A stretch of DNA of 64,000 bases from Cyanobacteriota bacterium (GTDB taxonomy: Bacteria; Cyanobacteriota; Cyanobacteriia; Thermostichales; Thermostichaceae). The stretch spans positions 64,001 through 128,000 of the forward strand of contig JANRIL010000005.1 of assembly GCA_033764955.1 (NCBI GenBank), given 5' to 3'. The first letter of the stretch is position 1, and the number at the start of each line of letters is the position of its first letter. This document shows, one piece after another, positions 12,182-50,671 of this stretch. The position numbers were made by a program, and so were the translations under genes. The notes under the pieces are model-generated. The model saw nothing but the letters and a program-made list of their open reading frames with translations. It had not been told where the DNA came from and ran no database searches.

Positions 12182-14092
12182 TCACGACCCAGGCTGGCAA
12201 GCGGAGGGGGGGACATCCAAGCTGGGATTAGCATCGAAAAAGCCGACGGGCTTGAGCATAAAGCCGAGGCTGGCCACGGGCATGATCGGCCAGTCTTCGG
12301 GGCGGGGAATATGATGATGCCCAAAGCTATACCAAAGGACAAGATTGGTTGATTCCAGAGAGCGGTTGGCTGCGCTCCATTCGGGGATCCCGGCACCACC
12401 AGGGTGCTGATTGGGATAATCGCCGGATGGGTAGCGCTGATCGGGATGATAGGGGGTAGCCCAGAGGTGGCGGGTCATGAAGGCAGCCCGCTTCAGGATG
12501 GGGGCATCCGGTTGGGCAAAGGGTAGGGCATTTTCGCCGGGAACCAGTTTGTAGGCCACTGCTTGCCCCAAGCGGTTGTGAACATGGGGGTTGACCACCT
12601 TCCAATAGCGGCAACTCAAGGGATCCACCAAGCGTTGGGCAGACTGTTCGCTGGGCAGCAGGGTTGATTGAGCCAGGAAGGCATTGCCATAGGGATTGGC
12701 CGCCCCGGCGGGGGCAGCAACGGTGTTCACTTCGTAGAGGGAATTTTCGTTGCCATCCACCTGCATATCCAGGCGGGCACAAAAGAAATGTTGATGAACA
12801 AGGGCATTCAGTTGGGGTGCCACCAAGCTGCCGTAGAGAGGATCCTCTGCGGGCAAAGCGGCGGCGGGCAGCAAAATTCCCGTCAGCTTCACCTCCAGTT
12901 GCAGGCTGCCATCCTGATAAAAATACCAGTAGAAACCATATTCATAGTTATCGACTGTGGTGATGAAAGAAATGACTAGCCGCCGCGAACGGCGAACTTC
13001 CGTGTGGTGATTCCGCCAGTCGGTGTGTTTCCAGAGTAGTCCGGCGTCTTCTTCGTGCAGGCAGATAGCCTGGGGAATGATGGATAGGTCGCCGCGGCTA
13101 TCGGTCATCACGGCATCAAAATAAGTAATGTCCCCCAGACAATCGCAGCCCAATTTCAGACTATTGGCTAAGGCTCCAATGCCATGCTCCCCCACATCAA
13201 AGGCATTTTTGCGGAAATGTTGGGGTCGGGGATCCCCGTAGGGCACAACCATTTCAGCAATGGAGGCGCGATAGATAATCGGACGTTGCCGCCCCTGATC
13301 TTGATAGCTGATGGTGTGTAGGACTAAGCCCTCCCGTGGGGTAAAGCCGACGCGAAACTGCCAGCGCTGCCAGGAAACCTGATAGCCCTCCACCCGAAAA
13401 CTGGGGCCTTGCGGCTGCACAATGTGTAAGGGTTTGAGATCCTCCCGAAACTGAGGCATAAAAGCCGCCGCATAGTTGCCCGCTTCGGGGGGAATCGGTA
13501 CGACCCCATAGTCCTCAATGCGAATCACCTGCATTCGATTCAAATCGACAACGGGAATCAGACCCTCAATCGGACGGGCATAGCCATTGCTGCCGGGACT
13601 ATGGCGTAGCCAGCACAGGGCACGCGCCAGCCGGATCCCCACCTCCTCAGCCAACCCAAAGTTCCCCACCGCCCAGGGATCCACCATCACCAGATCAAGG
13701 TCGTGGATGCCCCGCTCCTGCAATTTCTCCCGAAAGTGGGCGTCTGCCTTGACTGCCTGTTCACATTCCGCCAATTCATCGGCCATGATGTTGGGCTGTA
13801 CCCCAGGAATGTTCTGCCAGGAAGTGACCGCCTGTTGGGTGAGGGAAACCACAGCTTCATAGGTTGAGCCAGTGGCGTTATCCAAAAGGATCAGAAAAGC
13901 CTGCCGCTCGCTGGCCTGCCCCGCTTGAAAGGCTTGCACCAGGGATTTGGGGGGTTCCTGCAGCACCACCGTGGCAAAGCGGAACTGGGATCCAACGGCG
14001 CGTTGTTCTCTTAGAATCTGAACTGCCAAAGCTACTTCAGCGGGGGAGAGGGGATCGAGGGGATGGGCAAAGGGAGGGAGGGGATGGGGCAT
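12182..14092 (-). CDS. tynA: Copper-containing primary amine oxidase
   Basis: HPLDPLS, FDVGE (catalytic Asp), GCDCLG, TVDNYEY (TPQ site), HQHFF, HIPRPEDWPIMP. Confidence 0.93.
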   Translation of the reverse strand: MPHPLPPFAHPLDPLSPAEVALAVQILREQRAVGSQFRFATVVLQEPPKSLVQAFQAGQASERQAFLILLDNATGSTYEAVVSLTQQAVTSWQNIPGVQPNIMADELAECEQAVKADAHFREKLQERGIHDLDLVMVDPWAVGNFGLAEEVGIRLARALCWLRHSPGSNGYARPIEGLIPVVDLNRMQVIRIEDYGVVPIPPEAGNYAAAFMPQFREDLKPLHIVQPQGPSFRVEGYQVSWQRWQFRVGFTPREGLVLHTISYQDQGRQRPIIYRASIAEMVVPYGDPRPQHFRKNAFDVGEHGIGALANSLKLGCDCLGDITYFDAVMTDSRGDLSIIPQAICLHEEDAGLLWKHTDWRNHHTEVRRSRRLVISFITTVDNYEYGFYWYFYQDGSLQLEVKLTGILLPAAALPAEDPLYGSLVAPQLNALVHQHFFCARLDMQVDGNENSLYEVNTVAAPAGAANPYGNAFLAQSTLLPSEQSAQRLVDPLSCRYWKVVNPHVHNRLGQAVAYKLVPGENALPFAQPDAPILKRAAFMTRHLWATPYHPDQRYPSGDYPNQHPGGAGIPEWSAANRSLESTNLVLWYSFGHHHIPRPEDWPIMPVASLGFMLKPVGFFDANPSLDVPPSACQPGS

Positions 14093-14162
14093 AGCAAGCA
14101 ATGACCAGTGGACAAAAATTACCCCCAAATCTTAGCGTTAGGGGGCTGGGAGCGGATGGCCG

Positions 14163-15941: not shown

Positions 15942-16718
15942 TTAGGGATTGGCAAAGCCGCCTAATGGAGATCCCTGGCTGAGATGGCTAGCCGATTGAG
16001 AAAACATCTGAAAGGCGCGGCGAATTTCCTGCTCACTGTGTCCTGGGGTCAAAATCCACTCATCGCGGATCCCCATCTCTCGAAAAACCTGGCGAAAATC
16101 AGTAGCGCCGTCGTCAATACCCATCGCGGCAATGATGTGGTTTTCCGCCCGCAGCATATCCTGTACAATAGCGGCCACATCCTGAGCGGTAGAGTGGTAG
16201 GATCCGGCATCCCCGCCATCCGTAATAATTAGGGTCACGGTTCGCACCGGCACGCCATTATCGCTAAATTCTTGAGATTTGGCGAGAACTGTGCCCAACA
16301 AAATGACGGTTTGATCGTAGAGCGGTGTGCCCAAATTGGGATCATAGTTTTGCGTATTCATGCGAACCGCTTGACCCAAAGGACAATAAGGAAAGAGGAC
16401 AAAACCATTCAGATAGCGGGTATGAACCAGCATGTGATCCTGTTGTTTGGAGGCTGTCAGGGCATCCAAAACGGAATTATGGCCACCTCGCACGGCTTGG
16501 ACATTGCCGCTAAACCGAATGGATCCCGAATCATCCGGCATCATCGTGACCAAAACCACATCACTAGCCGTTACCTGATCAACAGAAATACCCAAACCCG
16601 CTTGAATTTGAGCACCAATATCGATCACATTCAAAGCTTGCAGAGAAGCCGATGAGAGGATCCCTTCATTCTGGGCATTTTGAAAAAGATCCTGAATATT
16701 GGGGGTCGATAAACTCAT
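15942..16718 (-). CDS. vWA (MIDAS) domain protein, TerY/YegL-like
   Basis: DDSGS (DxSxS), GTPLYD and IITDG MIDAS elements; AAGGAG RBS; last gene of the PP2C-kinase operon. Confidence 0.8.
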   Translation of the reverse strand: MSLSTPNIQDLFQNAQNEGILSSASLQALNVIDIGAQIQAGLGISVDQVTASDVVLVTMMPDDSGSIRFSGNVQAVRGGHNSVLDALTASKQQDHMLVHTRYLNGFVLFPYCPLGQAVRMNTQNYDPNLGTPLYDQTVILLGTVLAKSQEFSDNGVPVRTVTLIITDGGDAGSYHSTAQDVAAIVQDMLRAENHIIAAMGIDDGATDFRQVFREMGIRDEWILTPGHSEQEIRRAFQMFSQSASHLSQGSPLGGFANP

Positions 16719-16877
16719 GAGTTAGCTCCTTAAGGGTAGAGAGAAATAATTGGTGAAAAGGGATCCCTAGAGGCTGCCGTGGGTAAGGGATCCCATAGAC
16801 AGAATCCTTCATGATCCAGTCTAAAAAAGGGCAAGCAGCAGCCTTAAGTTATATTTTTGACAAACTTTGTTGATGGT

Positions 16878-17927
16878 TTAGCCAGGAAAACCAGGCCAAC
16901 TAGCGATGGGATCCGTCGATTTCACGATATACATACCCGCATCGGCAAATCGTTGGAAAGCAGCATCCGCTTGATCGGTAAAATCAATCACTCCAGGTAC
17001 TACAACCGGAGAGGTACAATCCTCCAAAAGATAAACTTTACGAGCTAACTGGGGATCTTGTGCCAAAATCTCTGTCAATAGATCATCAATCGTCCAAGCT
17101 ACACAGTGACTTTTGGCCTGTCCAGCAATAATCACCGCATCAAACTCCAATAATCGCTGAATGAAACGGGTATTTTTTTGAGCAATTGGACGACCATCCG
17201 ATCCATCCAAGACTTCGGGGCGTAGAACCGAATAGTTTTCGGTTAACGGATTTCCTCCCTTGATCTCAAAGTTGGTCTGGCTATGGCGGGCAATGGCATG
17301 AAAGAAGATAGCTTCTTCCACAGCAGAAACAAGAGCATGACCAATACCACCTAACATAGAGTGATAAGGCCAAACTGTCAGGGGATATTTTCCTTCATCA
17401 CTCAGTTTTTTGGCATAGTGGATAGCATGATTTTGTAAGGCCATATAGTTTCCTCTTGCCAAACTATAGGCAACAGCTGGATTGACTTTCCATACGCCCT
17501 TTTGCACATCCTCTAGGGTGATCATAGTGGCTGCCGGAATAGGATGTTCACCCGCATCATTCACCCAAAAAATAGGGTGAAAAATCTGCATGGTTGTATG
17601 GGTATCCATCGTCGGGGCAATTTCGCTAATAGAGGCCAGATTCTTGTAGATAAACTCGCACAAACGGCGGTTATCGTCGATAGCTCCGGTGCCAGAACGC
17701 CCCCCCACGTACAATTCAAAATCGGGGAGACAGAAGGTGTTTTGAGCATCAATCACCATCAGGCAAATGCGGGTTTTATCTTTCGCTGCTGGCGAGATCC
17801 CCATGCGTTTTGCCCAAGCTTCCGCTTCGCTGGCCCGCTGCTGATAGGGTACTCGCCACACCTGATTAACCAGATTAGGTTGAAAATGGCTGGGAATGGG
17901 AAGTGGTTGGAGAAGTGTTGTATTCAT
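16878..17927 (-). CDS. Nicotinamidase-like cysteine hydrolase (isochorismatase family, long form)
   Basis: VIDAQNTFC, TMDTH, WPYH, EIKG, AGQAKSHCV (catalytic Cys); clustered with pncB. Confidence 0.82.
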   Translation of the reverse strand: MNTTLLQPLPIPSHFQPNLVNQVWRVPYQQRASEAEAWAKRMGISPAAKDKTRICLMVIDAQNTFCLPDFELYVGGRSGTGAIDDNRRLCEFIYKNLASISEIAPTMDTHTTMQIFHPIFWVNDAGEHPIPAATMITLEDVQKGVWKVNPAVAYSLARGNYMALQNHAIHYAKKLSDEGKYPLTVWPYHSMLGGIGHALVSAVEEAIFFHAIARHSQTNFEIKGGNPLTENYSVLRPEVLDGSDGRPIAQKNTRFIQRLLEFDAVIIAGQAKSHCVAWTIDDLLTEILAQDPQLARKVYLLEDCTSPVVVPGVIDFTDQADAAFQRFADAGMYIVKSTDPIASWPGFPG

Positions 17928-18001
17928 GGTTAAAAGTGGGGTAAAGAAAAGATCGGTGAATTGTTGATGGGCAATCAAAACTGAAGTGTGGATAGATGAA
18001 A

Positions 18002-19924
18002 TTAGGAGCTATCCATTTTTAGCAACTGAATATGTTGGGCTTGCACAACGTATAATCCCTGAGAACAGGCCAATAGTGAGCAGTCCTGCTGAACAAATGG
18101 CTCCGTATCAGAAAATGTCTGGGTCACTCGTAAGTAAGTTTGATCCGGTTCGACACGAACAATTCCTTCGTCAATGGCAACGAAAAGCATAGCACCATTG
18201 GCCACTTTGCCTCCCAACGATCCCAGCCAACTGCCATCTCCTTTTTCCGCTTCAGCCATCGCCAGAAGGGATCCTTTCTGATTGATCAGAAAAGCTTGAT
18301 GAAGCACTTTTCCTTGCGTGGCATGGGCTACTAAAAACCAACAATGAGTGGGGCTAAAATAACAACCCATTTCTAGCAGTTTCCCCACTATTCGTGGAAT
18401 TTTTATCTGATCATTAATTCCACGCCGCTCCACATCAAATAGGAATGCACACTGTAAATCAGCCGCCTGATAAAATCCAAAACCAAAATGGGATCCCACC
18501 CAAATCTGGGTTTGTTGAGCCAAGACATCACCGATGTAAAAGGATCCAAACTGCCCATGCAATAATGGCTCATCCCGCCATAATTTTCCTTGATCGATCC
18601 AATAATGGTGATGGGTATTGACTGCCAATCCTGGCTGAAAAGTCGCGCTATCAATGGAGAGCCGTAAGGGATCCCGTTGCAGAGATAATCCAATGGCGAG
18701 CTGATCTTGAACAATCCAGGTTTGTTTGGGTTGCAGGTAAAAGTGGGCAGGAATGCGTTGCTCAGATAACAAGACCACCGATCCATCTTCCCGTTGAAAT
18801 TTTCCCGATTGGTAACTGAGCCATTGCAGTTGATCCTGATGAACGGCTGCTGCCACAATCAATCCTGTTGTTTGGGTAACTTGCGTGGCAATCACTCGAC
18901 CTTTTACCCGAATGACTTGAGCGATCGATCCTGGTAAAACACAGTGAGGACAACAATGGCGAGCATGTTCTGTCTGACAAGTTGGGCAGGTTTGCCACTT
19001 CAGGTTTTGCAGTAATGCTAGTGGAAAGAGACCGCGATAATCTTTCTGAAAAACCTGATGAAAATAGTTCAGTAACTCATCCGGCAGGCGCTCATAGGGG
19101 AGCGCAGGTTTGGGATATTTCACCTGTGGATGAAATATGGTGATGCGATGTAAAGGTCGCTGTTGGTGTGGAATAGCAGGACTACCGGTTGCGGGTTTAT
19201 AGACGCCTCCATAGGGATCCACATACAACAAGCTTTGCATGACCATAATGGTGAAAGCATACCAGTCAGATAACTGAGAATGTTGCTGTTGTAAAATCAG
19301 ACTTGTAGCTTGCGGATCACACAACAAAGGATCCACAAATTTATGGGTATAGAGGCCACAAACAAATGAATCAAACTGAAAGGAGTCGGCATCGATCAAA
19401 TAGGCTTGTTTGCCCTTAACCAAAACATTCATATCATTAAAATCACCAATCACTACATGGGCAGCGTGCAATTGATGAACGGTTTGATGTAAGTCTTGGA
19501 GAATTTCCAACATCAGGGAATGAGGGATCCCCATTTGATGGCGAAAGCTCCGTTCGGCATAACGAAATAGTCCTTCCGTGGGGTGGAGAAGGGGCATGAC
19601 ATAGCCCAAGATGGTTTGTCCGGAGGAATCAGTTACGAATGCGTTGGGAGTAATGACCTGAGTCGGCAAATGAGTAGGAAATCGTCGTAGTTTTTGCTGA
19701 TGCTCTTGCAGGCGATACTCAGCACTCTTTTGCTCAATGACAGAAGCTTGATAATCAGGATGATCCGGTTGTTTAAATAATTTGAGGACTTGTCCTTGCC
19801 CCAACCGATAAACCTCGGCTTCCCCTCCCTGTCCAATTAACTGGCTGGGTTTTAAGGAAATTTTTTTGCCATTTAGATAAAGCGGTTGCCCTATAGTTGA
19901 GAGATTCTTTTGTTTCGTGTTCAT
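18002..19924 (-). CDS. YegI-like Ser/Thr protein kinase with Zn-ribbon and C-terminal beta-rich domain
   Basis: IGQGGEAEVY, VLKLF, VVIGDFNDMNVLV, LIDADSF, SDWYAF, CPTC..H...CCPHC. GGGAG RBS before the ATG at 19924. Confidence 0.85.
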   Translation of the reverse strand: MNTKQKNLSTIGQPLYLNGKKISLKPSQLIGQGGEAEVYRLGQGQVLKLFKQPDHPDYQASVIEQKSAEYRLQEHQQKLRRFPTHLPTQVITPNAFVTDSSGQTILGYVMPLLHPTEGLFRYAERSFRHQMGIPHSLMLEILQDLHQTVHQLHAAHVVIGDFNDMNVLVKGKQAYLIDADSFQFDSFVCGLYTHKFVDPLLCDPQATSLILQQQHSQLSDWYAFTIMVMQSLLYVDPYGGVYKPATGSPAIPHQQRPLHRITIFHPQVKYPKPALPYERLPDELLNYFHQVFQKDYRGLFPLALLQNLKWQTCPTCQTEHARHCCPHCVLPGSIAQVIRVKGRVIATQVTQTTGLIVAAAVHQDQLQWLSYQSGKFQREDGSVVLLSEQRIPAHFYLQPKQTWIVQDQLAIGLSLQRDPLRLSIDSATFQPGLAVNTHHHYWIDQGKLWRDEPLLHGQFGSFYIGDVLAQQTQIWVGSHFGFGFYQAADLQCAFLFDVERRGINDQIKIPRIVGKLLEMGCYFSPTHCWFLVAHATQGKVLHQAFLINQKGSLLAMAEAEKGDGSWLGSLGGKVANGAMLFVAIDEGIVRVEPDQTYLRVTQTFSDTEPFVQQDCSLLACSQGLYVVQAQHIQLLKMDSS

Positions 19925-19937
19925 GGTTTGCTCCCGT

Positions 19938-20813
19938 TTATCCAGGTTTCTTTTGTCGCAAAACAATCAACGTTGTATCGTCGGGAAGTAATCCTGAGTG
20001 CCTGATTAACTGGCGAGCTGCCCAGTCAGGAACCGTCACATCACGGTTAATCAGATTGAGGTGACGTTGCAGCATTTGGGGGTTTTGAAAATAGCGATCT
20101 TCCTGCCAAAACTGGCTGATGAATCCGACCCGATCATGACGACCTGGCAAAGGATGATCAGCTTTGCTGAGGAGATCATTGACACCATCTGTGCCAATTA
20201 ACAATGAGTGCAGAGCTTGGGTAGGGATCACCCTCACCACTTGTATCGGATAGTGCAACCCCAATAATCCATAGCCTAAATAGGGAGGGCTATTATCTGC
20301 CTCTAAGGTCAGCACTTCATGATTTAGGATAAACACCCCATCACCTAAAGCAAATAACACACTGTGACTGGGGGTAATCACACAACCCACGAGGGTAAAT
20401 AAGAAATAATCCTGTACCATTTGTCCGCGATTTTGACCCATTAAATCAGCCAAACTAGCGATTTGTCTCAAGACTTCGCTTTGCACCCATTCCCAATCCA
20501 GCTCCCCCCATTGCAGTGCCATTGCAATCGTTTGCAGCAACAGCCGGGATCCCACTTTGGCTCCGATTTCGCTATGTTTGCTGCTGCCACATCCGTCACA
20601 AACCAGAGCAATCAAAAAATCCTCGGTTTTGAGCACCTGATAGCTGTCTTGGTTGTTGCGCCCCAGACGACGATGCTCAGTTCCTACCACCGAACCACAA
20701 GCCCATTCCAGAGGATCCCAGATCGGACGACCCTCCGCCACCGCTTTAGAATCAAAAGAACTTGCGGCTGAATCGTGCGGGTTGGGCAGGGGGGAACAGT
20801 CAAATCCAGTCAT
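19938..20813 (-). CDS. PP2C-family protein phosphatase (YegK/PphC-like)
   Basis: GSVVGTEH...NNQDS, VCDGCGS, LGDG, GTDG, DDTTL. Confidence 0.87.
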   Translation of the reverse strand: MTGFDCSPLPNPHDSAASSFDSKAVAEGRPIWDPLEWACGSVVGTEHRRLGRNNQDSYQVLKTEDFLIALVCDGCGSSKHSEIGAKVGSRLLLQTIAMALQWGELDWEWVQSEVLRQIASLADLMGQNRGQMVQDYFLFTLVGCVITPSHSVLFALGDGVFILNHEVLTLEADNSPPYLGYGLLGLHYPIQVVRVIPTQALHSLLIGTDGVNDLLSKADHPLPGRHDRVGFISQFWQEDRYFQNPQMLQRHLNLINRDVTVPDWAARQLIRHSGLLPDDTTLIVLRQKKPG

Positions 20814-20838
20814 AGTATGGGGAAGGGAGAGGATTTAT

Positions 20839-20859
20839 TTTTGGTTAAATTTACCATAA
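20839..20859 (-). promoter_or_regulatory. NrtR-type operator upstream of the PP2C-kinase-nicotinamidase-vWA operon
   Basis: Minus strand TTATGGT-AAATTTA-ACCAAAA, a 21-bp imperfect palindrome with a GT-N7-AC core, 25 bp before the ATG. Confidence 0.65.
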
Positions 20860-21026
20860 CATGCCGAATGAAGGCTGTCTAGGAGGGGAGGCAAAATCTT
20901 CCCGAGCTTTTTCCAGAAAGGCGGAATTATGGGATCTCTAGCTGCAAGCGGAGGAGATGTCTGACTGTCGCACCGATGAGGCTGAGATGCTAATTCCGTC
21001 TCATTTTTTTGAGAAATGCCTTTACT

Positions 21027-21047
21027 TTATAGTAGTTTTAACTATAA
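21027..21047 (+). promoter_or_regulatory. NrtR-type operator upstream of pncB
   Basis: Palindrome TTATAGT-AGTTTTA-ACTATAA with perfect 7-bp arms, matching the cyanobacterial NrtR box pattern as I recall it. Confidence 0.78.
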
Positions 21048-21081
21048 GCTGGGATTACCTTCTGGATAAGGATGTGGTTGT

Positions 21082-22428
21082 ATGTTGACGCCCGAATTAT
21101 CGTTAGCCCCTCAAGACTATGGATTGCTAACGGATCTCTATCAGTTGACGATGGCGGCTTGTTATGTCGGGGAGCAAGTGGAGCAACAGCCCGCTGCCTT
21201 TGAGCTGTTTGTCCGGCGATTGCCTGCTGATTACGGCTATCTGATGGCGATGGGATTGACTCAGGCGGTGGAATACCTGCAAAATCTCTCCTTTACTGCT
21301 GAGCAGGTGAAGGCGCTGCAAGCCAGTGGTGTGTTTGTGGATGCTCCCGAACGGTTTTGGTCACTCTTGGAAAACTGCCGTTTCACGGGAGATCTCTGGG
21401 CGGTGGCGGAGGGGACAGCCATATTTGCCAACGAGCCACTGTTGCGGATCGAAGCCCCGCTCTGGCAGGCACAACTGGTAGAAACCTACCTGCTCTCTAC
21501 CCTCAACTACCAAACCCTGATCGCCACTAAGTCGGCTCGGATGCGTGATGCTGCTGGCGAATCAGCCGTTTTACTGGAATTTGGCACACGGCGAGCCTTT
21601 GGCCCACATGCCGGCATGTGGGCGGCGCGTGCCGCTCTGGCAGCGGGGTTTGATGCCACCTCCAATGTCTTAGCAGCCTTAAAGTTGGGGCGCAAACCTG
21701 CCGGGACGATGGCTCATTCTTTGGTAATGGCACTAGCGGCTCTTTCCGGCGATGAAGAAAGCGCCTTTCAATCCTTCCGACGTTATTTCCCTCAGTCCGC
21801 CCTCCTGATCGACACCTATGATCCCATTCAAGGGGCACGCACCGCAGCCCAACTGATGCACCGCGATCTGCATGAGTCCAGCAGCGATGGGGAAATGGGG
21901 GGGGTACGGATTGATTCCGGCAATCTGGAACAACTTTCACGACAGGTTCAGGAAATTTTGCCCCAGGGATCCCCGATTTTTGTGAGTGGCGATCTGGATG
22001 AATACGAAATTCAACGATTGCAGCAATCGCAAGCCCCGATTGCCGGATATGGCGTGGGCACACGACTGGTCACCGGTGGCTGCATTAACGGTGTCTATAA
22101 ATTGGTGGAAATTAACGGCATTCCCGTGGCCAAGGGTTCGATTGCCAAAGCTACTATTCCTGGACGCAAACAGATTTTTCGCGGATCCGATCACGACTAT
22201 CTGGGCAGCGCCAACGAGGATCCCCCCCCGCACACCAGCCCCCTCCTGCAACCGATCTTGCAACAGGGAGTCTTGCTCAATCCCCTACCCTCCCTGGAAG
22301 CGATCGCTCAGCAGACTCGCACCTCCCTGCACCAACTGCCCCTCTCAATCCGCCAATTACGGGATCCCAACCCCTGGCCTGTTCACCTCACCCCCACCCT
22401 ACAATCCCTCAAGCCCAAAAATGCTTAG
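21082..22428 (+). CDS. pncB: Nicotinate phosphoribosyltransferase
   Basis: LLTDLYQLTM, EFGTRRA, ATSNV, GTMAHS, LIDTYD, GVRIDSG, SGDLDE, YGVGT, GVYKLV. Confidence 0.95.
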   Translation: MLTPELSLAPQDYGLLTDLYQLTMAACYVGEQVEQQPAAFELFVRRLPADYGYLMAMGLTQAVEYLQNLSFTAEQVKALQASGVFVDAPERFWSLLENCRFTGDLWAVAEGTAIFANEPLLRIEAPLWQAQLVETYLLSTLNYQTLIATKSARMRDAAGESAVLLEFGTRRAFGPHAGMWAARAALAAGFDATSNVLAALKLGRKPAGTMAHSLVMALAALSGDEESAFQSFRRYFPQSALLIDTYDPIQGARTAAQLMHRDLHESSSDGEMGGVRIDSGNLEQLSRQVQEILPQGSPIFVSGDLDEYEIQRLQQSQAPIAGYGVGTRLVTGGCINGVYKLVEINGIPVAKGSIAKATIPGRKQIFRGSDHDYLGSANEDPPPHTSPLLQPILQQGVLLNPLPSLEAIAQQTRTSLHQLPLSIRQLRDPNPWPVHLTPTLQSLKPKNA

Positions 22429-23066: not shown

Positions 23067-23663
23067 ATGCTAATCACGGTTGCCGGTTTTAAGGGAGGAG
23101 TGGCGAAAACCACCACCGCCATCCATCTGGCTTGTTATCTCAGCCAGAGGGGTTCTACGCTGTTGATTGATGCGGATCCCAATCGTTCCGCCCTCAGTTG
23201 GAGTCAACGGGGAGAAGGATTGCCCTTTCTGGTTTTGGATGAAGAAGCGGCGGTTGGCAAGATTGCTACCCATCGTCATACGGTGATTGATACGCAAGCC
23301 CGCCCCAGCCCGGATGAGTTAGAAGATTTATCCACCCACTGTGATCTTTTAGTTTTGCCCTGCACCCCCGATGCCCTCGCTTTGGATGCGCTCCTGCTCA
23401 CGGTCGAGGCTCTTAAGCCTTGGGGATCCGGTCGCTATCGGGTGTTGTTGTCGATTGTTCCCCCTTGGCCGAGTGGCGATGGAGCGGAAGCCCGTACCTT
23501 TCTCAAGCAAGCCGGGATCCCGACCTTTCGGGGGATGGTTCGACGGTTTTCGGTCTATCAAAAGGCGGCTCTGCTAGGCTTGCCTGTGTATGCAGTGCCG
23601 GATCCGAAAGCCAAAGTCGCTTGGAGTGACTACCTCTCGATTGGTCAGGAGTTAGGGCTATGA
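23067..23663 (+). CDS. parA: Small ParA/ParF-type (type Ib) Walker ATPase
   Basis: FKGGVAKTTTA, LIDADPNRSA, VIDTQARP; 198 aa with no N-terminal HTH. Confidence 0.88.
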   Translation: MLITVAGFKGGVAKTTTAIHLACYLSQRGSTLLIDADPNRSALSWSQRGEGLPFLVLDEEAAVGKIATHRHTVIDTQARPSPDELEDLSTHCDLLVLPCTPDALALDALLLTVEALKPWGSGRYRVLLSIVPPWPSGDGAEARTFLKQAGIPTFRGMVRRFSVYQKAALLGLPVYAVPDPKAKVAWSDYLSIGQELGL

Positions 23664-24085
23664 GCAAATTTGCCAAACTGTTTCGCGCCTCTGCCGATCC
23701 TCCAGATGCAGAGCCTCCACCACTGCCTAACCCTATCCAACAACCTCCGCCCCCCCTCCCTCCTGTCAGAAAAGCCAAGGATCCCGTCCCCCCCAACCCC
23801 AAAGGGATCCCTCCCAAAAAAGTCAGCGCCCAAGCTTACAAAGTTACCAAGAAAATCGGCGGCGAAGCGGATCGGGATCCGGTTGAGTCCCTCGTCACCA
23901 GCCTGCACCGCACCGCTTATCCAGAAGATCAAGTTTGGGATGGCGACATGGATGAGCGAGTCACCACCTCAGTCCGCCGCGTTACCTATCAACTGGTGAA
24001 GATAAAACTGTTGCAGGAAGGCTCTGACCTGGAATTTGCTGAGCTAATTGAATATTTATTGCGAGCATGGCTGACTCAACCTTGA
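23660..24085 (+). CDS. Putative ParA partner (Pro-rich disordered N-terminus, possible ribbon-helix-helix C-terminus)
   Basis: ATGA overlap with parA; MSKF start; C-terminal TTSVRRVTYQLVKIKLLQEG..EFAELIEYLLRAWL resembles cyanobacterial ParA-adjacent proteins. Confidence 0.65.
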   Translation: MSKFAKLFRASADPPDAEPPPLPNPIQQPPPPLPPVRKAKDPVPPNPKGIPPKKVSAQAYKVTKKIGGEADRDPVESLVTSLHRTAYPEDQVWDGDMDERVTTSVRRVTYQLVKIKLLQEGSDLEFAELIEYLLRAWLTQP

Positions 24086-24432: not shown

Positions 24433-26019
24433 TTATCGCTGGTGGATTTGCTTTGTCAAATCCCTCACAGTAGTCCAAAATTTATATAGATTTTCTAGCT
24501 CGGGTTCCTGGGGAGCTAATTGCCTCACTTGATGTAACAGGTCGCAGGCTTCAGCTCTACGCCCTTCCAACCACAGTTTGCTTGCAACATTCAGGATCCT
24601 GCATGCACGGATCACATTCCCCCCTTCTTCAACCTGTTCTTTCAATTGCTCGTCATAAAGACCCACTATCTGTAATCGTTCAATACTGGTGTTCAGAATC
24701 TCCGCCTTCGCTTCAATATCAGTTACGTGCTTCTTTGGGTTTGGTTCACCAAAAGAGAAGCGGGGCCATAGGTGATCCGCAGTGATGTTTGCATGGTACC
24801 TAAGGACAAACTTAACAACTTTACTAGAGGCTTCAACTAGCAACTCTCTGTCCTGATGAATGCATTCTTCACCGCACATTTGATAAAAAGCCTTAGCTAG
24901 GTGGTGCACACGAATAACACTTTCGAGGGAGGTCATATCCCCATCTAGTGTGTTTCTGAGGCGTGCTTTAATCCTTTCTTTCACAAAATCTCGTTGACTA
25001 GGTATTTCTGCAAGTTTCAGATACCTGTCGATTTCAGTTGGCAGCTCACAGTAATTAGAGATGTAGTCAAAGTAATCAAAAAGAAGCTCGAGTTGTTTAA
25101 GGCTGTTGGAACTCAAAACATTAAGAATACTCGCGAGTCGGTCGTAGCATTGCTGGAATGAGGGTCGCTTATCTGGGTCAGCAGCAAGCATTGCTTTCGC
25201 CAGTAGCACCAGTTCTTGAGCTTGAGGATTCTGCGAGGGAGAAAAATGCCGTTCCCCGTCAATCGACCATTTCTTCAGCTTGGATCCCCTCCACTTCCAC
25301 ACTTTCGTTGCCGAGTTTTTTGTTGCGGGATGGTAGCCCTGAAATAGCTCTGCAATCACAACACCTACTGCAAACACATCAGGTGCGAATGTTTTATAGG
25401 GGCTGGGATCATACTGTTCAGGAGCCTTGTAAGCATTAGTGCCACCCAGATGGTTATCGCTCCATGCATTTGCCACTCCAAAGTCTGCGATCCGAACTGA
25501 ATACCTCAACGAAAGATCAACGTGAGAAGGTGGAAAATCGCAGAATTTCTTACTCAAATCTATGTACAGTAGGTTCTCGGGTTTTATATCCTGATGGTGA
25601 ACCATACCGCGCCTGTTCGCAACTATCATTCCCTTCACTATCTGCAACGATAGGCAGACTACACTTGTCAGGCTTAGCTTCTTACTTTCCAACTCACTGC
25701 TTATTAACTTCCTGAGATCACCATCACAATATGGCATGCAGATAAGTGGAATACCATCCCAAGTTTCGGTGAAGTATGGATTGATAACAAGTGGGTGCCC
25801 TGCAAAGCTAAACCAGTTTCTAGCCTCACGGTCAATCCGTTCAGTGTCAATGGAAAGGTTGCTTTCGAGTTCCTGGATCGTCTTGTATGCAATATACTTG
25901 GGGTGAGCGTCCTGTTCGATGATGTAGACCAATCCGCCTCTTCCTTTTCGACGGTCAACGATCTTACCTTTGAAGACTCTTGTCTCTAGCAACTCCCGAG
26001 TATGTTCATTCCAGGACAT
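24433..26019 (-). CDS. Hanks-type Ser/Thr protein kinase with helical (TPR-like) C-terminus
   Basis: GRGGLVY, IAYKT, HQDIKPENLL, IADFG, GTNAYKAPE, DVFAVG; GAGGA RBS. Confidence 0.88.
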   Translation of the reverse strand: MSWNEHTRELLETRVFKGKIVDRRKGRGGLVYIIEQDAHPKYIAYKTIQELESNLSIDTERIDREARNWFSFAGHPLVINPYFTETWDGIPLICMPYCDGDLRKLISSELESKKLSLTSVVCLSLQIVKGMIVANRRGMVHHQDIKPENLLYIDLSKKFCDFPPSHVDLSLRYSVRIADFGVANAWSDNHLGGTNAYKAPEQYDPSPYKTFAPDVFAVGVVIAELFQGYHPATKNSATKVWKWRGSKLKKWSIDGERHFSPSQNPQAQELVLLAKAMLAADPDKRPSFQQCYDRLASILNVLSSNSLKQLELLFDYFDYISNYCELPTEIDRYLKLAEIPSQRDFVKERIKARLRNTLDGDMTSLESVIRVHHLAKAFYQMCGEECIHQDRELLVEASSKVVKFVLRYHANITADHLWPRFSFGEPNPKKHVTDIEAKAEILNTSIERLQIVGLYDEQLKEQVEEGGNVIRACRILNVASKLWLEGRRAEACDLLHQVRQLAPQEPELENLYKFWTTVRDLTKQIHQR

Positions 26020-46388: not shown

Positions 46389-47411
46389 ATGAGTGGACTG
46401 GGTGGACTGAATAAATCTCCCAACGGTGTCGTTCTCGGCATGGTGCAGTTGCAACTACCCCAAGTGGCAACCCCCGACGAGTTGAACCAACAAACCGAGC
46501 GGATCTGTCAGATGGTGGGGAAAGCACGCCGCAACATGCCCTCCCTAGATTTAGTGGTGTTTCCCGAATACGCTTTGCATGGGCTATCGATGGATACCAA
46601 CCCTGAGATAATGTGTCGCCTGGATGGACCAGAGGTGGCAGCCTTTAGCCAAGCCTGTCGAGAACACCAGATTTGGGGATGCTTTAGCCTGATGGAGTTT
46701 AACCCCCACGGTAATCCCTACAACAGTGGCATTATCTTGGATGAGCAGGGAGAACTCAAACTTTATTACCGCAAGCTACACCCCTGGGTTCCGGTTGAAC
46801 CGTGGGAACCCGGCAACATCGGGATCCCTGTCTGTGAGGGTCCCAATGGATCCACGCTGGCTCTGATTATTTGTCACGATGGCATGTTTCCCGAAATGGC
46901 TAGGGAATGCGCCTACAAAGGGGCAGAAATTATGATTCGCACAGCCGGCTATACGGCTCCCATTCGCCATGCCTGGCGGATTACCAACCAAGCCAATGCG
47001 TTTTGTAATCTCATGGTGACAGCTTCCGTCTGTATGTGTGGCAGCGATGGCACGTTTGACTCAATGGGCGAGGCCATGATCTGCCATTTTGACGGCACTC
47101 CCCTGGTAATGGGATCCCATCGCCCGGATGAAATCATTACGGGGGAAGTGCGACCCGATTTGGTACGGGAGGCTCGCATTCACTGGGGAGTAGAAAATAA
47201 CATTTATCAACTGGGACATCGGGGCTATGTTGCCGTTCAGGGAGGGGCACAGGATTGCCCCTATACCTATATGCAGGATCTCGTGAATGGCACCTACCAT
47301 CTGCCCTGGGATGAGCAAGTGATTCACAAAGATGGCACGGCTTGCGGGTTTCCCGCTCCTACCCGTACCTATAGTCCAGCCATGCCCGAAAGAGTTTCTC
47401 TCTCCTCCTAG
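46389..47411 (+). CDS. Formamidase-like nitrilase-superfamily amidase (AmiF-type)
   Basis: [10 protein letters not shown] start; E-K-C triad in [17 protein letters not shown] and ICHDGMFPE. Confidence 0.88.
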
Positions 47412-47449
47412 CCCCCATCTCCCTATTAGCCCTTCATCACTCAGCCATT

Positions 47450-48139
47450 ATGGGATCCCGAACCGTTGACTCTACCCCTTATCCCTATCCCTACAATGGG
47501 GATCTGCGGCCTGATAATTCGGCCCTGGTGATTATTGATATGCAGACAGATTTTTGTGGGGAGGGTGGGTATGTAGACAAAATGGGTTACGACCTATCCT
47601 TAACTCGTGCTCCCATCCAACCCATTCAAAAAGTTCTATCTGTCTTTCGCTCCAAAGGATTTTGGATCATTCATACCCGTGAAGGGCATCGGCCTGATCT
47701 ATCGGATTTACCTGCCAATAAACGCTGGCGCAGTCAACAAATTGGGGCGGGCATCGGAGATCCTGGCCCCTGTGGCAAGATCCTAGTGCGCGGAGAACCC
47801 GGTTGGGAAATTATTCCTGAACTGGCTCCTTTGCCAGGAGAAATTATTATTGATAAGCCTGGTAAGGGATCCTTTTATGCCACCGATTTAGACTTGATTT
47901 TGCTCCGCAATCGCATCCAGAACCTAATTTTGACAGGTATTACTACCGATGTTTGTGTGCATACGACTATGCGAGAAGCCAATGATCGGGGTTATGAATG
48001 TCTATTGCTCTCCGATTGTACGGGGGCAACCGATTACAACAATTATCTAGCCGCTCTCAGTATGATCAAAATGCAGGGGGGAGTTTTTGGTACTGTGGGA
48101 TCATCGGATGCTTTACTAGAAGTAATTGATTCAATGTGA
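47450..48139 (+). CDS. biuH: Biuret hydrolase-like cysteine hydrolase
   Basis: [48 protein letters not shown] (BiuH-type residue pattern). Confidence 0.85.
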
Positions 48140-49852: not shown

Positions 49853-49984
49853 TCTATCGTTTGTGAGCTTATCGGCTTAGCTTTTAGCTATCACTCAACC
49901 CATCCATCCTTTTGTCAGTTTTCTTATTCCTGTTGGTAGTCAGACTAGCCTTATCCATCCCTTATATTGTTGTCGGAACTCCCT

Positions 49985-50671
49985 ATGATCACCATTTCTG
50001 CTCAACCCTACGACTATGTTGTTCCCCACCCCAGTCAAGTAGCCTTGGTCATTATTGACATGCAACGGGATTTTTTGGAGCCAGGGGGGTTTGGGGAGAG
50101 CCTGGGAAATGATATTAGTCAGGTTCGCTCGATTGTTCCTACTTTACAAACCCTATTAGAAACATTTCGTGCTTTGAAACTGACGGTTGTACACACATTG
50201 GAATGTCATCAACCCGATCTTGCCGACTGTCCTCCCGCCAAGCTTTCTAGGGGCAAGGGATCCCTCAAGATTGGCGATGTTGGTCCGATGGGTCGCATTT
50301 TAATTATGGGGGAACCCGGTAATGGGATTATTCCTGAACTATCTCCGATCTCTGGTGAAATCGTCATTCCTAAGCCAGGTAAGGGAGCTTTTTATCACAC
50401 TGAATTGGGATCCCTGTTGGCGGAGCGAGGCATCACCCATCTCTTATTTACTGGAGTCACGACGGAGGTGTGTGTCCAGACTTCTATGCGGGAAGCTAAT
50501 GATCGGGGGTATGAATGTTTACTGATCGAAGATGCCACAGCCAGCTATTTTCCTGCTTTCAAACAAGCCACCTTAGAAATGGTTTCCTCCCAGGGGGGAG
50601 TGGTGGGTTGGGTTAGTTCTGCCTCGTCTGTCATCACAGGCTTACAAGCTGCTTTACAACCAGCTGGCTGA
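49985..50671 (+). CDS. trtA: Triuret hydrolase-like cysteine hydrolase
   Basis: [43 protein letters not shown] (F/L/E/Y pattern versus Y/M/D/T in the BiuH-like paralog). Confidence 0.72.

Follow-up and report, generated by a model that had tools for sequence, protein, structure and literature searches.

The present analysis concerns a stretch of 64,000 nucleotides (hereafter the window) from contig JANRIL010000005.1 of a Thermostichaceae genome (GCA_033764955.1; positions 64,001-128,000). The window contains four same-strand genes for a PP2C-type phosphatase, a YegI-like kinase with a zinc ribbon, a nicotinamidase-fold hydrolase and a vWA protein with a metal ion-dependent adhesion site (MIDAS), which are arranged head-to-head with pncB. 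With a probability of roughly 60%, this locus is read here as an NrtR-controlled nicotinamide-salvage operon that carries its own TerY-P-like phospho-switch, and it suggests that vitamin B3 recycling is subject to a form of phosphorylation control not yet described. In the following, the hydrolase is called ISO, the kinase KIN, and the gene set (PP2C-)KIN-ISO-vWA the module. The original prediction, made from the sequence alone, had proposed one system tied to the status of nicotinamide adenine dinucleotide (NAD+); this proposal is supported by the occurrence of the kinase and vWA genes only around ISO, by NrtR regulators and operators, and by the NAD genes that adjoin the module. Its further suggestion, that the system may answer an attack by NADases or ADP-ribosylating enzymes, is a hypothetical role.

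Gene organization

All five predicted open reading frames (ORFs) were confirmed at their coordinates and strands. The pncB gene (21082-22428, +) encodes nicotinate phosphoribosyltransferase; its product matched NF006696 (2.8e-174, 580 bits, above the cut-off of 503, in a single-sequence profile search) as well as the Pfam families NAPRTase_N, NAPRTase, and NAPRTase_C. On the minus strand, PP2C (19938-20813, 291 aa) is the first gene of the operon and is followed by KIN (18002-19924, 640 aa), ISO (16878-17927, 349 aa), and vWA (15942-16718, 258 aa). The longest ORF of ISO begins at a TTG at 17978, and the ATG at 17927 was preferred as its start because the homologues measure 344-352 aa. For the kinase gene, a TTG at 19966 is an alternative to the ATG at 19924; the PP2C gene stops 14 bases 5' of the latter and overlaps the former. 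The gaps between KIN and ISO (74 bp) and between ISO and vWA (159 bp) are compatible with one transcript, while the PP2C-pncB spacer measures 268 bp. The terminator scan found no terminator-like site on the gene strand in the ISO-vWA gap, and the terminator and promoter scans both gave matches at shuffle frequency. From this spacing, the four genes are presumed to be co-transcribed.

Conservation of the KIN-ISO-vWA module

Conservation was analyzed in 201 genomes sampled evenly from the phylum, among them the own genome (G000), and in 80 ISO loci from species-representative genomes. ISO is present in 62 of the 201 genomes and pncB in 78. The vWA and kinase genes occur in the same five genomes (G000, G023, G047, G080, and G088), always directly flanking ISO in the order KIN-ISO-vWA and never away from it (5/5). 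A PP2C gene precedes the kinase gene in four of these five, G023 being the one in which none was found. In G088, a member of another class, the module order is the same at 34-45% identity, so the linkage is kept across classes.

The locus survey gave a similar order. PP2C-KIN-ISO-vWA was found in 12 of the 80 loci, PP2C-KIN-ISO at a contig end in three, KIN-ISO-vWA at a contig start in one, and ISO-vWA only in four; the remaining 60 contain ISO alone. Module genes thus keep the same order in 20/20 module loci. The arrangement of four genes plus pncB, which had been suggested as a unit, fared differently: it was found in 0/80 loci, and only G000 and G088 show it among the 201 genomes, so that pncB adjacency was rejected as a conserved feature. 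The recurrent fifth gene is not pncB but an NrtR paralog.

According to the ISO tree (quick method, midpoint root, all 85 rows kept), 53 solo ISOs of Nostocales, Oscillatoriales, and Chroococcidiopsidaceae types form one supported clade. All 25 module ISOs fall outside this clade, together with seven solo ISOs, and at least five label changes are needed. Judged by their sequences, the ISOs of module and solo loci are one and the same orthologue, and the triad of kinase, PP2C, and vWA is probably an old accessory layer that was lost more than once.

Two further features of module loci were observed. In the Pseudanabaena loci, gaps of 0.8-1.6 kb separate the module genes. In G088 (L087 2657-5273), two tandem genes for putative Mg2+/Co2+ efflux proteins of CNNM/CorC type (CBS domain) lie directly upstream on the same strand as the module, which could be tied to the metal-binding vWA protein or be a coincidence.

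NrtR regulators and operators

In a previous study (Rodionov et al. 2008, PMC2330246), the operators of NrtR are described as palindromes of 21 bp built on a GT-N7-AC core, to which binding is weakened by ADP-ribose, and the cyanobacterial NrtR regulon is given as '#pncB-nadD-nrtR-nadE; #nadA', without pncA. As judged by tblastn and motif searches, the conserved fifth element of the module is a putative NrtR-family repressor paralog together with tandem 21-bp candidate operators. Among module loci, the paralog shows 63-71% identity, and it shares about 40-43% with the own genome's NrtR. It stands 5' of the module, in divergent orientation, in 14/14 PP2C-bearing loci with enough upstream sequence (L001, L009-L017, L019, L022, L089, and L090). 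In L003 it lies 6 kb downstream of the module, and in G023 an nrtR gene stands divergently, 77 bp from the kinase gene. At two loci, extra DNA of 1.1-2.4 kb was noted between the paralog and the operators (L009 729-1898, a Pseudanabaena locus; L090 4252-6728, in G080).

Palindromes of the module type (ATAGTGT-N7-ACACTAT), usually two in tandem, are located directly 5' of the first module gene, whether this is PP2C, KIN, or ISO. Of the sites in which at least 6/7 arm pairs match, 18 fall in the upstream windows (20.6 kb; 0.87/kb) and 56 elsewhere (1022 kb; 0.055/kb), two of the latter 56 being the L001 operators, which were misplaced through the start estimate. When at most one mismatch was allowed, G023 (3.7 Mb) contained three sites, the two perfect ones at the module, and G047 (4.7 Mb) contained one, at the module; G080 had none, its sites being more degenerate. 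The module-type candidate operator is thus almost confined to the module in complete genomes.

A single NrtR gene was identified in the own genome, on another contig; its product matches NrtR_WHD above the cut-off and NF050029 at 5.9e-36, below the equivalog cut-off. In 20/20 other cyanobacterial genomes, a canonical site (TTATGGT-N7-ACCATAA, at most three arm mismatches) is present 5' of pncB at a consistent distance. The own genome (3.8 Mb) contains six canonical-type sites with at most two mismatches, and two of these are located in the PP2C-pncB spacer, one on each promoter side; the other four are either within long ORFs or at a distance of 454 bp from the start of an ORF. Candidate operator A (20839-20859, TTTTGGT-N7-ACCATAA) is 25 nt 5' of the PP2C start and departs from the canonical arms at a single position, as does only one other site in 3.8 Mb. 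The -10 hexamer of a promoter-like TAGACA-17-TATGGT with TG on the minus strand (20881-20853), the sole promoter-like match on that strand of the spacer, falls on the right arm of this operator. Candidate operator B (21027-21047, TTATAGT-N7-ACTATAA) is 34 nt 5' of the pncB start. It is a perfect 21-bp palindrome; the genome has five perfect palindromes of the GT-N7-AC kind, and in this one alone the arms are AT-rich. In type and placement it matches the sites 5' of pncB in the 20 other genomes.

Since both sites lie in the PP2C-pncB spacer and the paralog could not be located, the module of this lineage appears to be wired to the housekeeping NrtR jointly with pncB. L001, the nearest relative in the set, retains the paralog and the variant operators. 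Sequence and context suggest that NrtR would bind the two spacer sites, with ADP-ribose as the effector.

ISO as the probable cyanobacterial PncA

Single-sequence searches of Pfam, NCBIfam, PADLOC, PHROGs, and PDB (phmmer) returned nothing useful for ISO and the vWA protein, and family profiles and models were therefore used for these two. In the profile analysis, the PP2C and pncB products passed their cut-offs as single sequences, while vWA and ISO were assigned only by family profiles and models. ISO homologues are plentiful in cyanobacteria, 70-88% identical across orders, and carry the source names 'isochorismatase' or 'nicotinamidase-related amidase'; an exhaustive search found 2427 representatives at E <= 0.001. 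Two distant members of the family match PF00857, one at 8.7e-11 (above the cut-off) and the other at 9.5e-6 (just below it).

In an alignment of 44 diverse sequences, the candidate catalytic triad (D60, K223, and C275) and the candidate metal ligands (D108, H110, and H189) are invariant or at least 90% conserved, D108 and H110 being at least 90% conserved and H189 invariant. The top matches of the ISO profile in PDB are yeast Pnc1 (2h0r, 6.6e-9), Acinetobacter baumannii PncA (2wt9, 1.8e-6), and Mycobacterium tuberculosis PncA (3pl1, 3.9e-6). The DxH, WPxHC, KG, and HCV motifs match in the alignment to nicotinamidases, with DWH and WPvHC of yeast Pnc1 paired. The metal-site motifs DxH and WPxH separate nicotinamidases from other members of the isochorismatase family. 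The AlphaFold model of ISO has a predicted local distance difference test score (pLDDT) of 96.5, and the first 14 Foldseek rows listed for it are all nicotinamidases, the best at 7.1e-12. Template modeling (TM) scores are 0.72-0.80 by target, except for a 327-residue Drosophila entry (0.50), and 0.43-0.49 by query. Other amidases with the isochorismatase fold rank below nicotinamidases in the profile and fold searches alike.

The embedded hydrolase had been called nicotinamidase-like, and profile, fold, and active-site residues agree with this description. Because all three point there, ISO is placed, by sequence and model, as a long, divergent member of the nicotinamidase branch. A canonical PncA was not found in the genome, in which five PF00857 proteins score 29-47 bits against a PncA cut-off of 174. 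The pncB gene is present in 61/62 ISO-positive genomes and in 17/139 ISO-negative ones, 15 of those 17 belonging to other classes; no statistic is given for this co-occurrence, as related genomes are not independent. ISO-positive genomes would otherwise miss the first enzyme of salvage pathway I, which supports ISO as that enzyme, and genomic co-occurrence supports ISO as the partner of PncB. Taken with profile, fold, and active-site residues, ISO is probably the cyanobacterial PncA, and from sequence and context it is predicted to deamidate nicotinamide to nicotinate.

Other NAD genes are also found beside the module, and four such arrangements were seen. Downstream of the module in G088, and in the same orientation, lie genes for NrtR (NUDIX and NrtR_WHD), pncB, prs, and glutamine-dependent NAD synthetase (nadE).

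Several additional observations were made on ISO and its relatives. Among ISO positions, K49 is the sole one that tracks the module, and at this position G088 has T. Prediction of an ISO-vWA complex gave a score of 0.00, which counts neither for nor against such a complex. ISO looks broken in G123 (C1:545214-545916; in-frame stop, two fragments) and only part of it is present in G065 and G097; gene decay or gaps in the assemblies may explain this, and all three genomes retain pncB. ISO relatives of 525-614 aa from other phyla (P0121, P0123, P0127, P0128, P0129, P0138, and P0156), outside the close cyanobacterial group, have an extra, mutually similar N-terminal domain of about 190-290 residues with no Pfam match. 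This domain is not vWA, kinase, or PP2C, so a fusion of ISO with a triad partner was rejected; it may be another partner of the ISO family. Elsewhere in the window, two isochorismatase-family genes lie 2 kb apart (47375-48139, +, and 49949-50671, +). The product of the former, one of the five PF00857 proteins, is the biuret amidohydrolase BiuH (414 bits, above the NCBIfam cut-off), which hints at a cluster for cyanuric acid or biuret degradation.

Kinase, phosphatase, and vWA protein

The predicted triad architecture stands, with a vWA protein that has a complete MIDAS, a PP2C, and a YegI-like kinase with a Cys4 zinc-ribbon motif. Against Pfam and NCBIfam, the kinase gave only sub-threshold matches (Pkinase/Kdo/Bud32/LanL). 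By BLASTP it matches Escherichia coli YegI at 2e-10 over 285 residues; the region of YegI's unusual DxDS (DSD) loop is aligned, and the kinase reads DADS there. Directly after the kinase domain follows the Cys4 zinc-ribbon motif CPTC...CCPHC. As a lead, the C-terminal ~300 residues resemble BamB/PQQ-like propeller models (TM 0.5-0.6), and this propeller-like domain could be the signal-reading part. The phosphatase matches PF13672 (PP2C_2) at 2e-19, above the cut-off, and E. coli PphC at 1e-5 by BLASTP.

The vWA protein on its own had no match in Pfam, NCBIfam, PADLOC, or PDB (phmmer), and its orthologue in G088 matches PF00092 at 1.3e-4, below the cut-off. Its homologues in cyanobacteria are 70-80% identical. 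The MIDAS residues D62-x-S64-x-S66, T131, and D167 are invariant in 25 homologues, and a conserved N-terminal helical segment of about 50 residues stands ahead of the vWA domain. The AlphaFold model has a pLDDT of 80.3, and the PDB matches listed for it by Foldseek are all vWA/integrin I domains (best 2.5e-6). A likeness to TerY/YegL specifically is weak, the match to E. coli YegL having an E value of 1e-3. The PADLOC scan of the locus gave no match; this negative carries no information, because the E. coli triad used as a control likewise gave no TerY-P match.

Residence and genomic context

The original prediction had regarded the locus as long-resident, on the ground that its genes contain many GGGATCCC sites. 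In cyanobacteria, GCGATCGC is the usual palindrome, from which GGGATCCC differs. GGGATCCC is an iterated palindrome in this genome, with 76 copies in the window against 2.7 expected and 4915 genome-wide (1.29/kb), and it is denser in GC-richer windows. The claim about the genes holds for three sites in the kinase gene and one in PP2C, but ISO and vWA have none; two more sites are in the ISO-vWA spacer (16760-16767 and 16787-16794 are examples of the palindrome). The block as a whole contains six sites in 4.9 kb, while windows of the same GC class average 4.3 per 5 kb. Its GC content is 46.8% against 51.5% for the genome, at the 9th percentile of same-size windows. Long residence is in line with the normal palindrome density and the lineage-following ISO tree, although the GC content is on the low side. 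With these two features and a GC content no lower than the 9th percentile, a recent horizontal acquisition is not supported.

The locus is surrounded by housekeeping genes (miaA, apt, and pncB) and lies outside any defence island. A copper primary-amine oxidase gene (12182-14128, -; NF008559, 970 bits) adjoins miaA and apt. On the other side, a second, canonical Ser/Thr kinase gene (24433-26019, -; Pkinase 2.5e-28) has PADLOC matches to mad6 (3.5e-31) and PD-T4-6; it adjoins a ParA-like ATPase gene and a 141-aa ORF without a family (23067-23663, +, and 23660-24085, +). This region is low in GC, as is the module block.

Outside the sampled genomes, the cassette was found on a 318-kb IMG/VR contig classed as viral (L112), as PP2C-KIN-ISO-(181-aa ORF)-vWA with 39-64% identity. 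It is flanked by NAD-synthase-like (NadE-like) and AAA ATPase genes upstream and by a cytidylyltransferase-like (adenylyltransferase-like) gene downstream, and many neighboring ORFs have no Pfam family.

Proposed mechanism and alternative explanations

In the proposed mechanism, cleavage of NAD+ would release ADP-ribose and nicotinamide. ADP-ribose would free NrtR from both operators in the PP2C-pncB spacer, by which pncB and PP2C-KIN-ISO-vWA would both be derepressed. ISO would then convert nicotinamide to nicotinate, and PncB would convert nicotinate to nicotinate mononucleotide (NaMN) for NAD+ resynthesis. The kinase/PP2C pair would determine whether ISO, or its vWA partner, is phosphorylated, thereby gating or localizing the first salvage step. 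This last step is speculative and is guided by the fixed gene order; equally speculative are the assignment of who phosphorylates whom and of the signal read by the propeller-like domain or the vWA MIDAS site.

Several observations weigh against this picture. On the regulatory side, the NrtR paralog was not found in the own genome, the assembly of which is 89% complete, so that a paralog may be missed. Site A deviates from the canonical arms by its mismatch, and the promoter-like matches (9 found, 8.2 expected from shuffles) are no more frequent than chance would give. About 58 of the 60 solo ISO loci have no operator within 260 bp (the exceptions are L018 and L037), and ISO is therefore not generally in the NrtR regulon. 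On the enzymatic side, ISO does not match PF00857 or the NCBIfam PncA model NF008623 even at E 10, and it is about 140 residues longer than solved nicotinamidases (349 vs about 180-235 aa); given both, its substrate could differ from nicotinamide. No Ser/Thr position of ISO was found to track the presence of the module. Finally, 57/62 ISO-positive genomes carry ISO without the triad, which is therefore dispensable for ISO function, and many module loci come from close relatives (13 are Pseudanabaena-like), so that locus counts overstate independence.

One alternative is that the triad acts as a stand-alone TerY-P-like anti-phage system, with ISO as an effector or helper. ISO might strip nicotinamide and so deny a phage the means to rebuild NAD+, or it might lift the inhibition that nicotinamide exerts on NAD-consuming defence enzymes; conversely, a phage-borne cassette might restore NAD+ against NAD-depleting host defences. 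Anti-phage activity has been reported for TerY-P-like modules that stand alone (Gao et al. 2020, cited in PMC11090510), the cassette is present on the viral-classed contig, induction through a product of NAD breakdown would suit a response to NADase activity, and the module is patchy in cyanobacteria (5/201). Nevertheless, the housekeeping surroundings of the locus speak against a conflict role, as do the single orthologous copy of ISO that follows lineage phylogeny and the biosynthetic NAD genes that are neighbors of the module in every context seen, while phage carriage argues for NAD supply rather than anti-phage action. We therefore consider a conflict system improbable.

A comparably small chance is given to the possibility that ISO is not a nicotinamidase and acts on another NAD-related amide (such as nicotinamide mononucleotide, nicotinamide riboside, or a modified nucleotide) or on a protein-linked group, with the triad and the ISO pathway only co-regulated with NAD salvage. 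The unmatched PF00857 and PncA models, the large insertions that account for the length of ISO, and the fusion of relatives in other phyla to a ~250-residue N-terminal domain without a family would fit this possibility. The conserved triad and three metal ligands, which make up the full nicotinamidase signature, speak against it, as do the leading place of nicotinamidases over other isochorismatase-fold enzymes in the profile and fold searches and the near-constant company of pncB in genomes otherwise without the first enzyme of salvage pathway I. Chance or local genome organization, in which kinase, PP2C, and vWA would have no functional tie to ISO or NAD, could appeal to the many genomes with ISO but no triad and to a pncB adjacency peculiar to the own genome and G088, but it is very hard to reconcile with a kinase and vWA that never leave ISO, with the order kept in every module locus, with a linkage that spans classes and a viral-classed contig, and with operators that precede whichever module gene comes first.

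A wider form of the salvage-operon reading can be offered only tentatively, and we think it rather less likely to be true than false: kinase, PP2C, and vWA would be a dedicated switch that gates the nicotinamidase step upon NAD+ breakdown, the cassette would be of ancient origin, shared by early-branching cyanobacteria, a sister class, and large phages but lost from crown cyanobacteria, and phages would draw on it to restore NAD+ while infecting a cell. In this wider form, ISO (or an ISO-vWA complex) would be the first target defined for a TerY-P-type triad.

Triads of the TerY-P type are common, E. coli YegL-PphC-YegI being one of them, and neither a substrate nor a signal is known for them. 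Here the triad is tied to one simply assayed enzyme and to a known regulator whose effector is also known, which makes its function directly testable. If the salvage-operon reading is true, a post-translational control layer would be added to bacterial NAD+ salvage, and the pncA step of cyanobacterial salvage pathway I, so far without a named gene, would be filled. Because the cassette is also present on a contig classed as a large phage, the system would also bear on the struggle between phage and host over NAD+.

Comparison with known systems

The module shares its three protein types with the TerY-P triad (E. coli yegL-pphC-yegI type), namely a YegI-homologous kinase, a PP2C_2 phosphatase like PphC, and a MIDAS vWA protein, although the similarity of the last to YegL is marginal (1e-3). 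The definition of TerY-P in PMC11090510 includes a Ser/Thr kinase fused C-terminally to a zinc ribbon, and the module kinase agrees with this in its Cys4 motif after the kinase domain. According to a preprint (10.1101/819920), YegI is an active autophosphorylating kinase whose substrates are unknown. Unlike the known triad, the three genes of the module are not contiguous, ISO being always between kinase and vWA; the kinase has an extra propeller-like C-terminal domain of about 300 residues, which is absent from the definition; and the module stands behind NrtR-type operators beside NAD genes, not beside restriction, CoCoNuT, or Ter genes.

With the NrtR regulons described in PMC2330246 (e.g., nrtR-pncA-pncB), the module shares 21-bp GT-N7-AC operators located at promoters, an nrtR gene that is adjacent or divergent, and genes of salvage pathway I. 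It differs in that the available part of that source names no cyanobacterial pncA, kinase, phosphatase, or vWA member, and in that a second NrtR paralog, with the operator variant ATAGTGT-N7-ACACTAT, serves in the majority of module genomes. Compared with canonical PncA (yeast Pnc1, M. tuberculosis, and A. baumannii), ISO has the same isochorismatase-like fold, Asp-Lys-Cys triad, and Asp/His/His metal site, but it is longer, is missed by the standard models as described above, and is unusually conserved, with about 70-85% identity between cyanobacterial orders.

The original prediction knew of no characterized system with a nicotinamidase inside the triad, and none was found in the literature on TerY-P, nicotinamidase, and NrtR either. 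A description of the cassette was likewise not found in the literature on TerY-P, nicotinamidase/pncB, and NrtR, some older work and NrtR supplements that may bear on novelty being outside this coverage. The locus differs from both known systems in the enzyme inserted between kinase and vWA and in the signaling proteins placed inside an NAD regulon. Also new are the cyanobacterial setting, in which ISO is the lineage's general PncA candidate (57 solo vs five module genomes), and the two NrtR paralogs with distinct operators, with an apparent rewiring to the canonical NrtR beside pncB.

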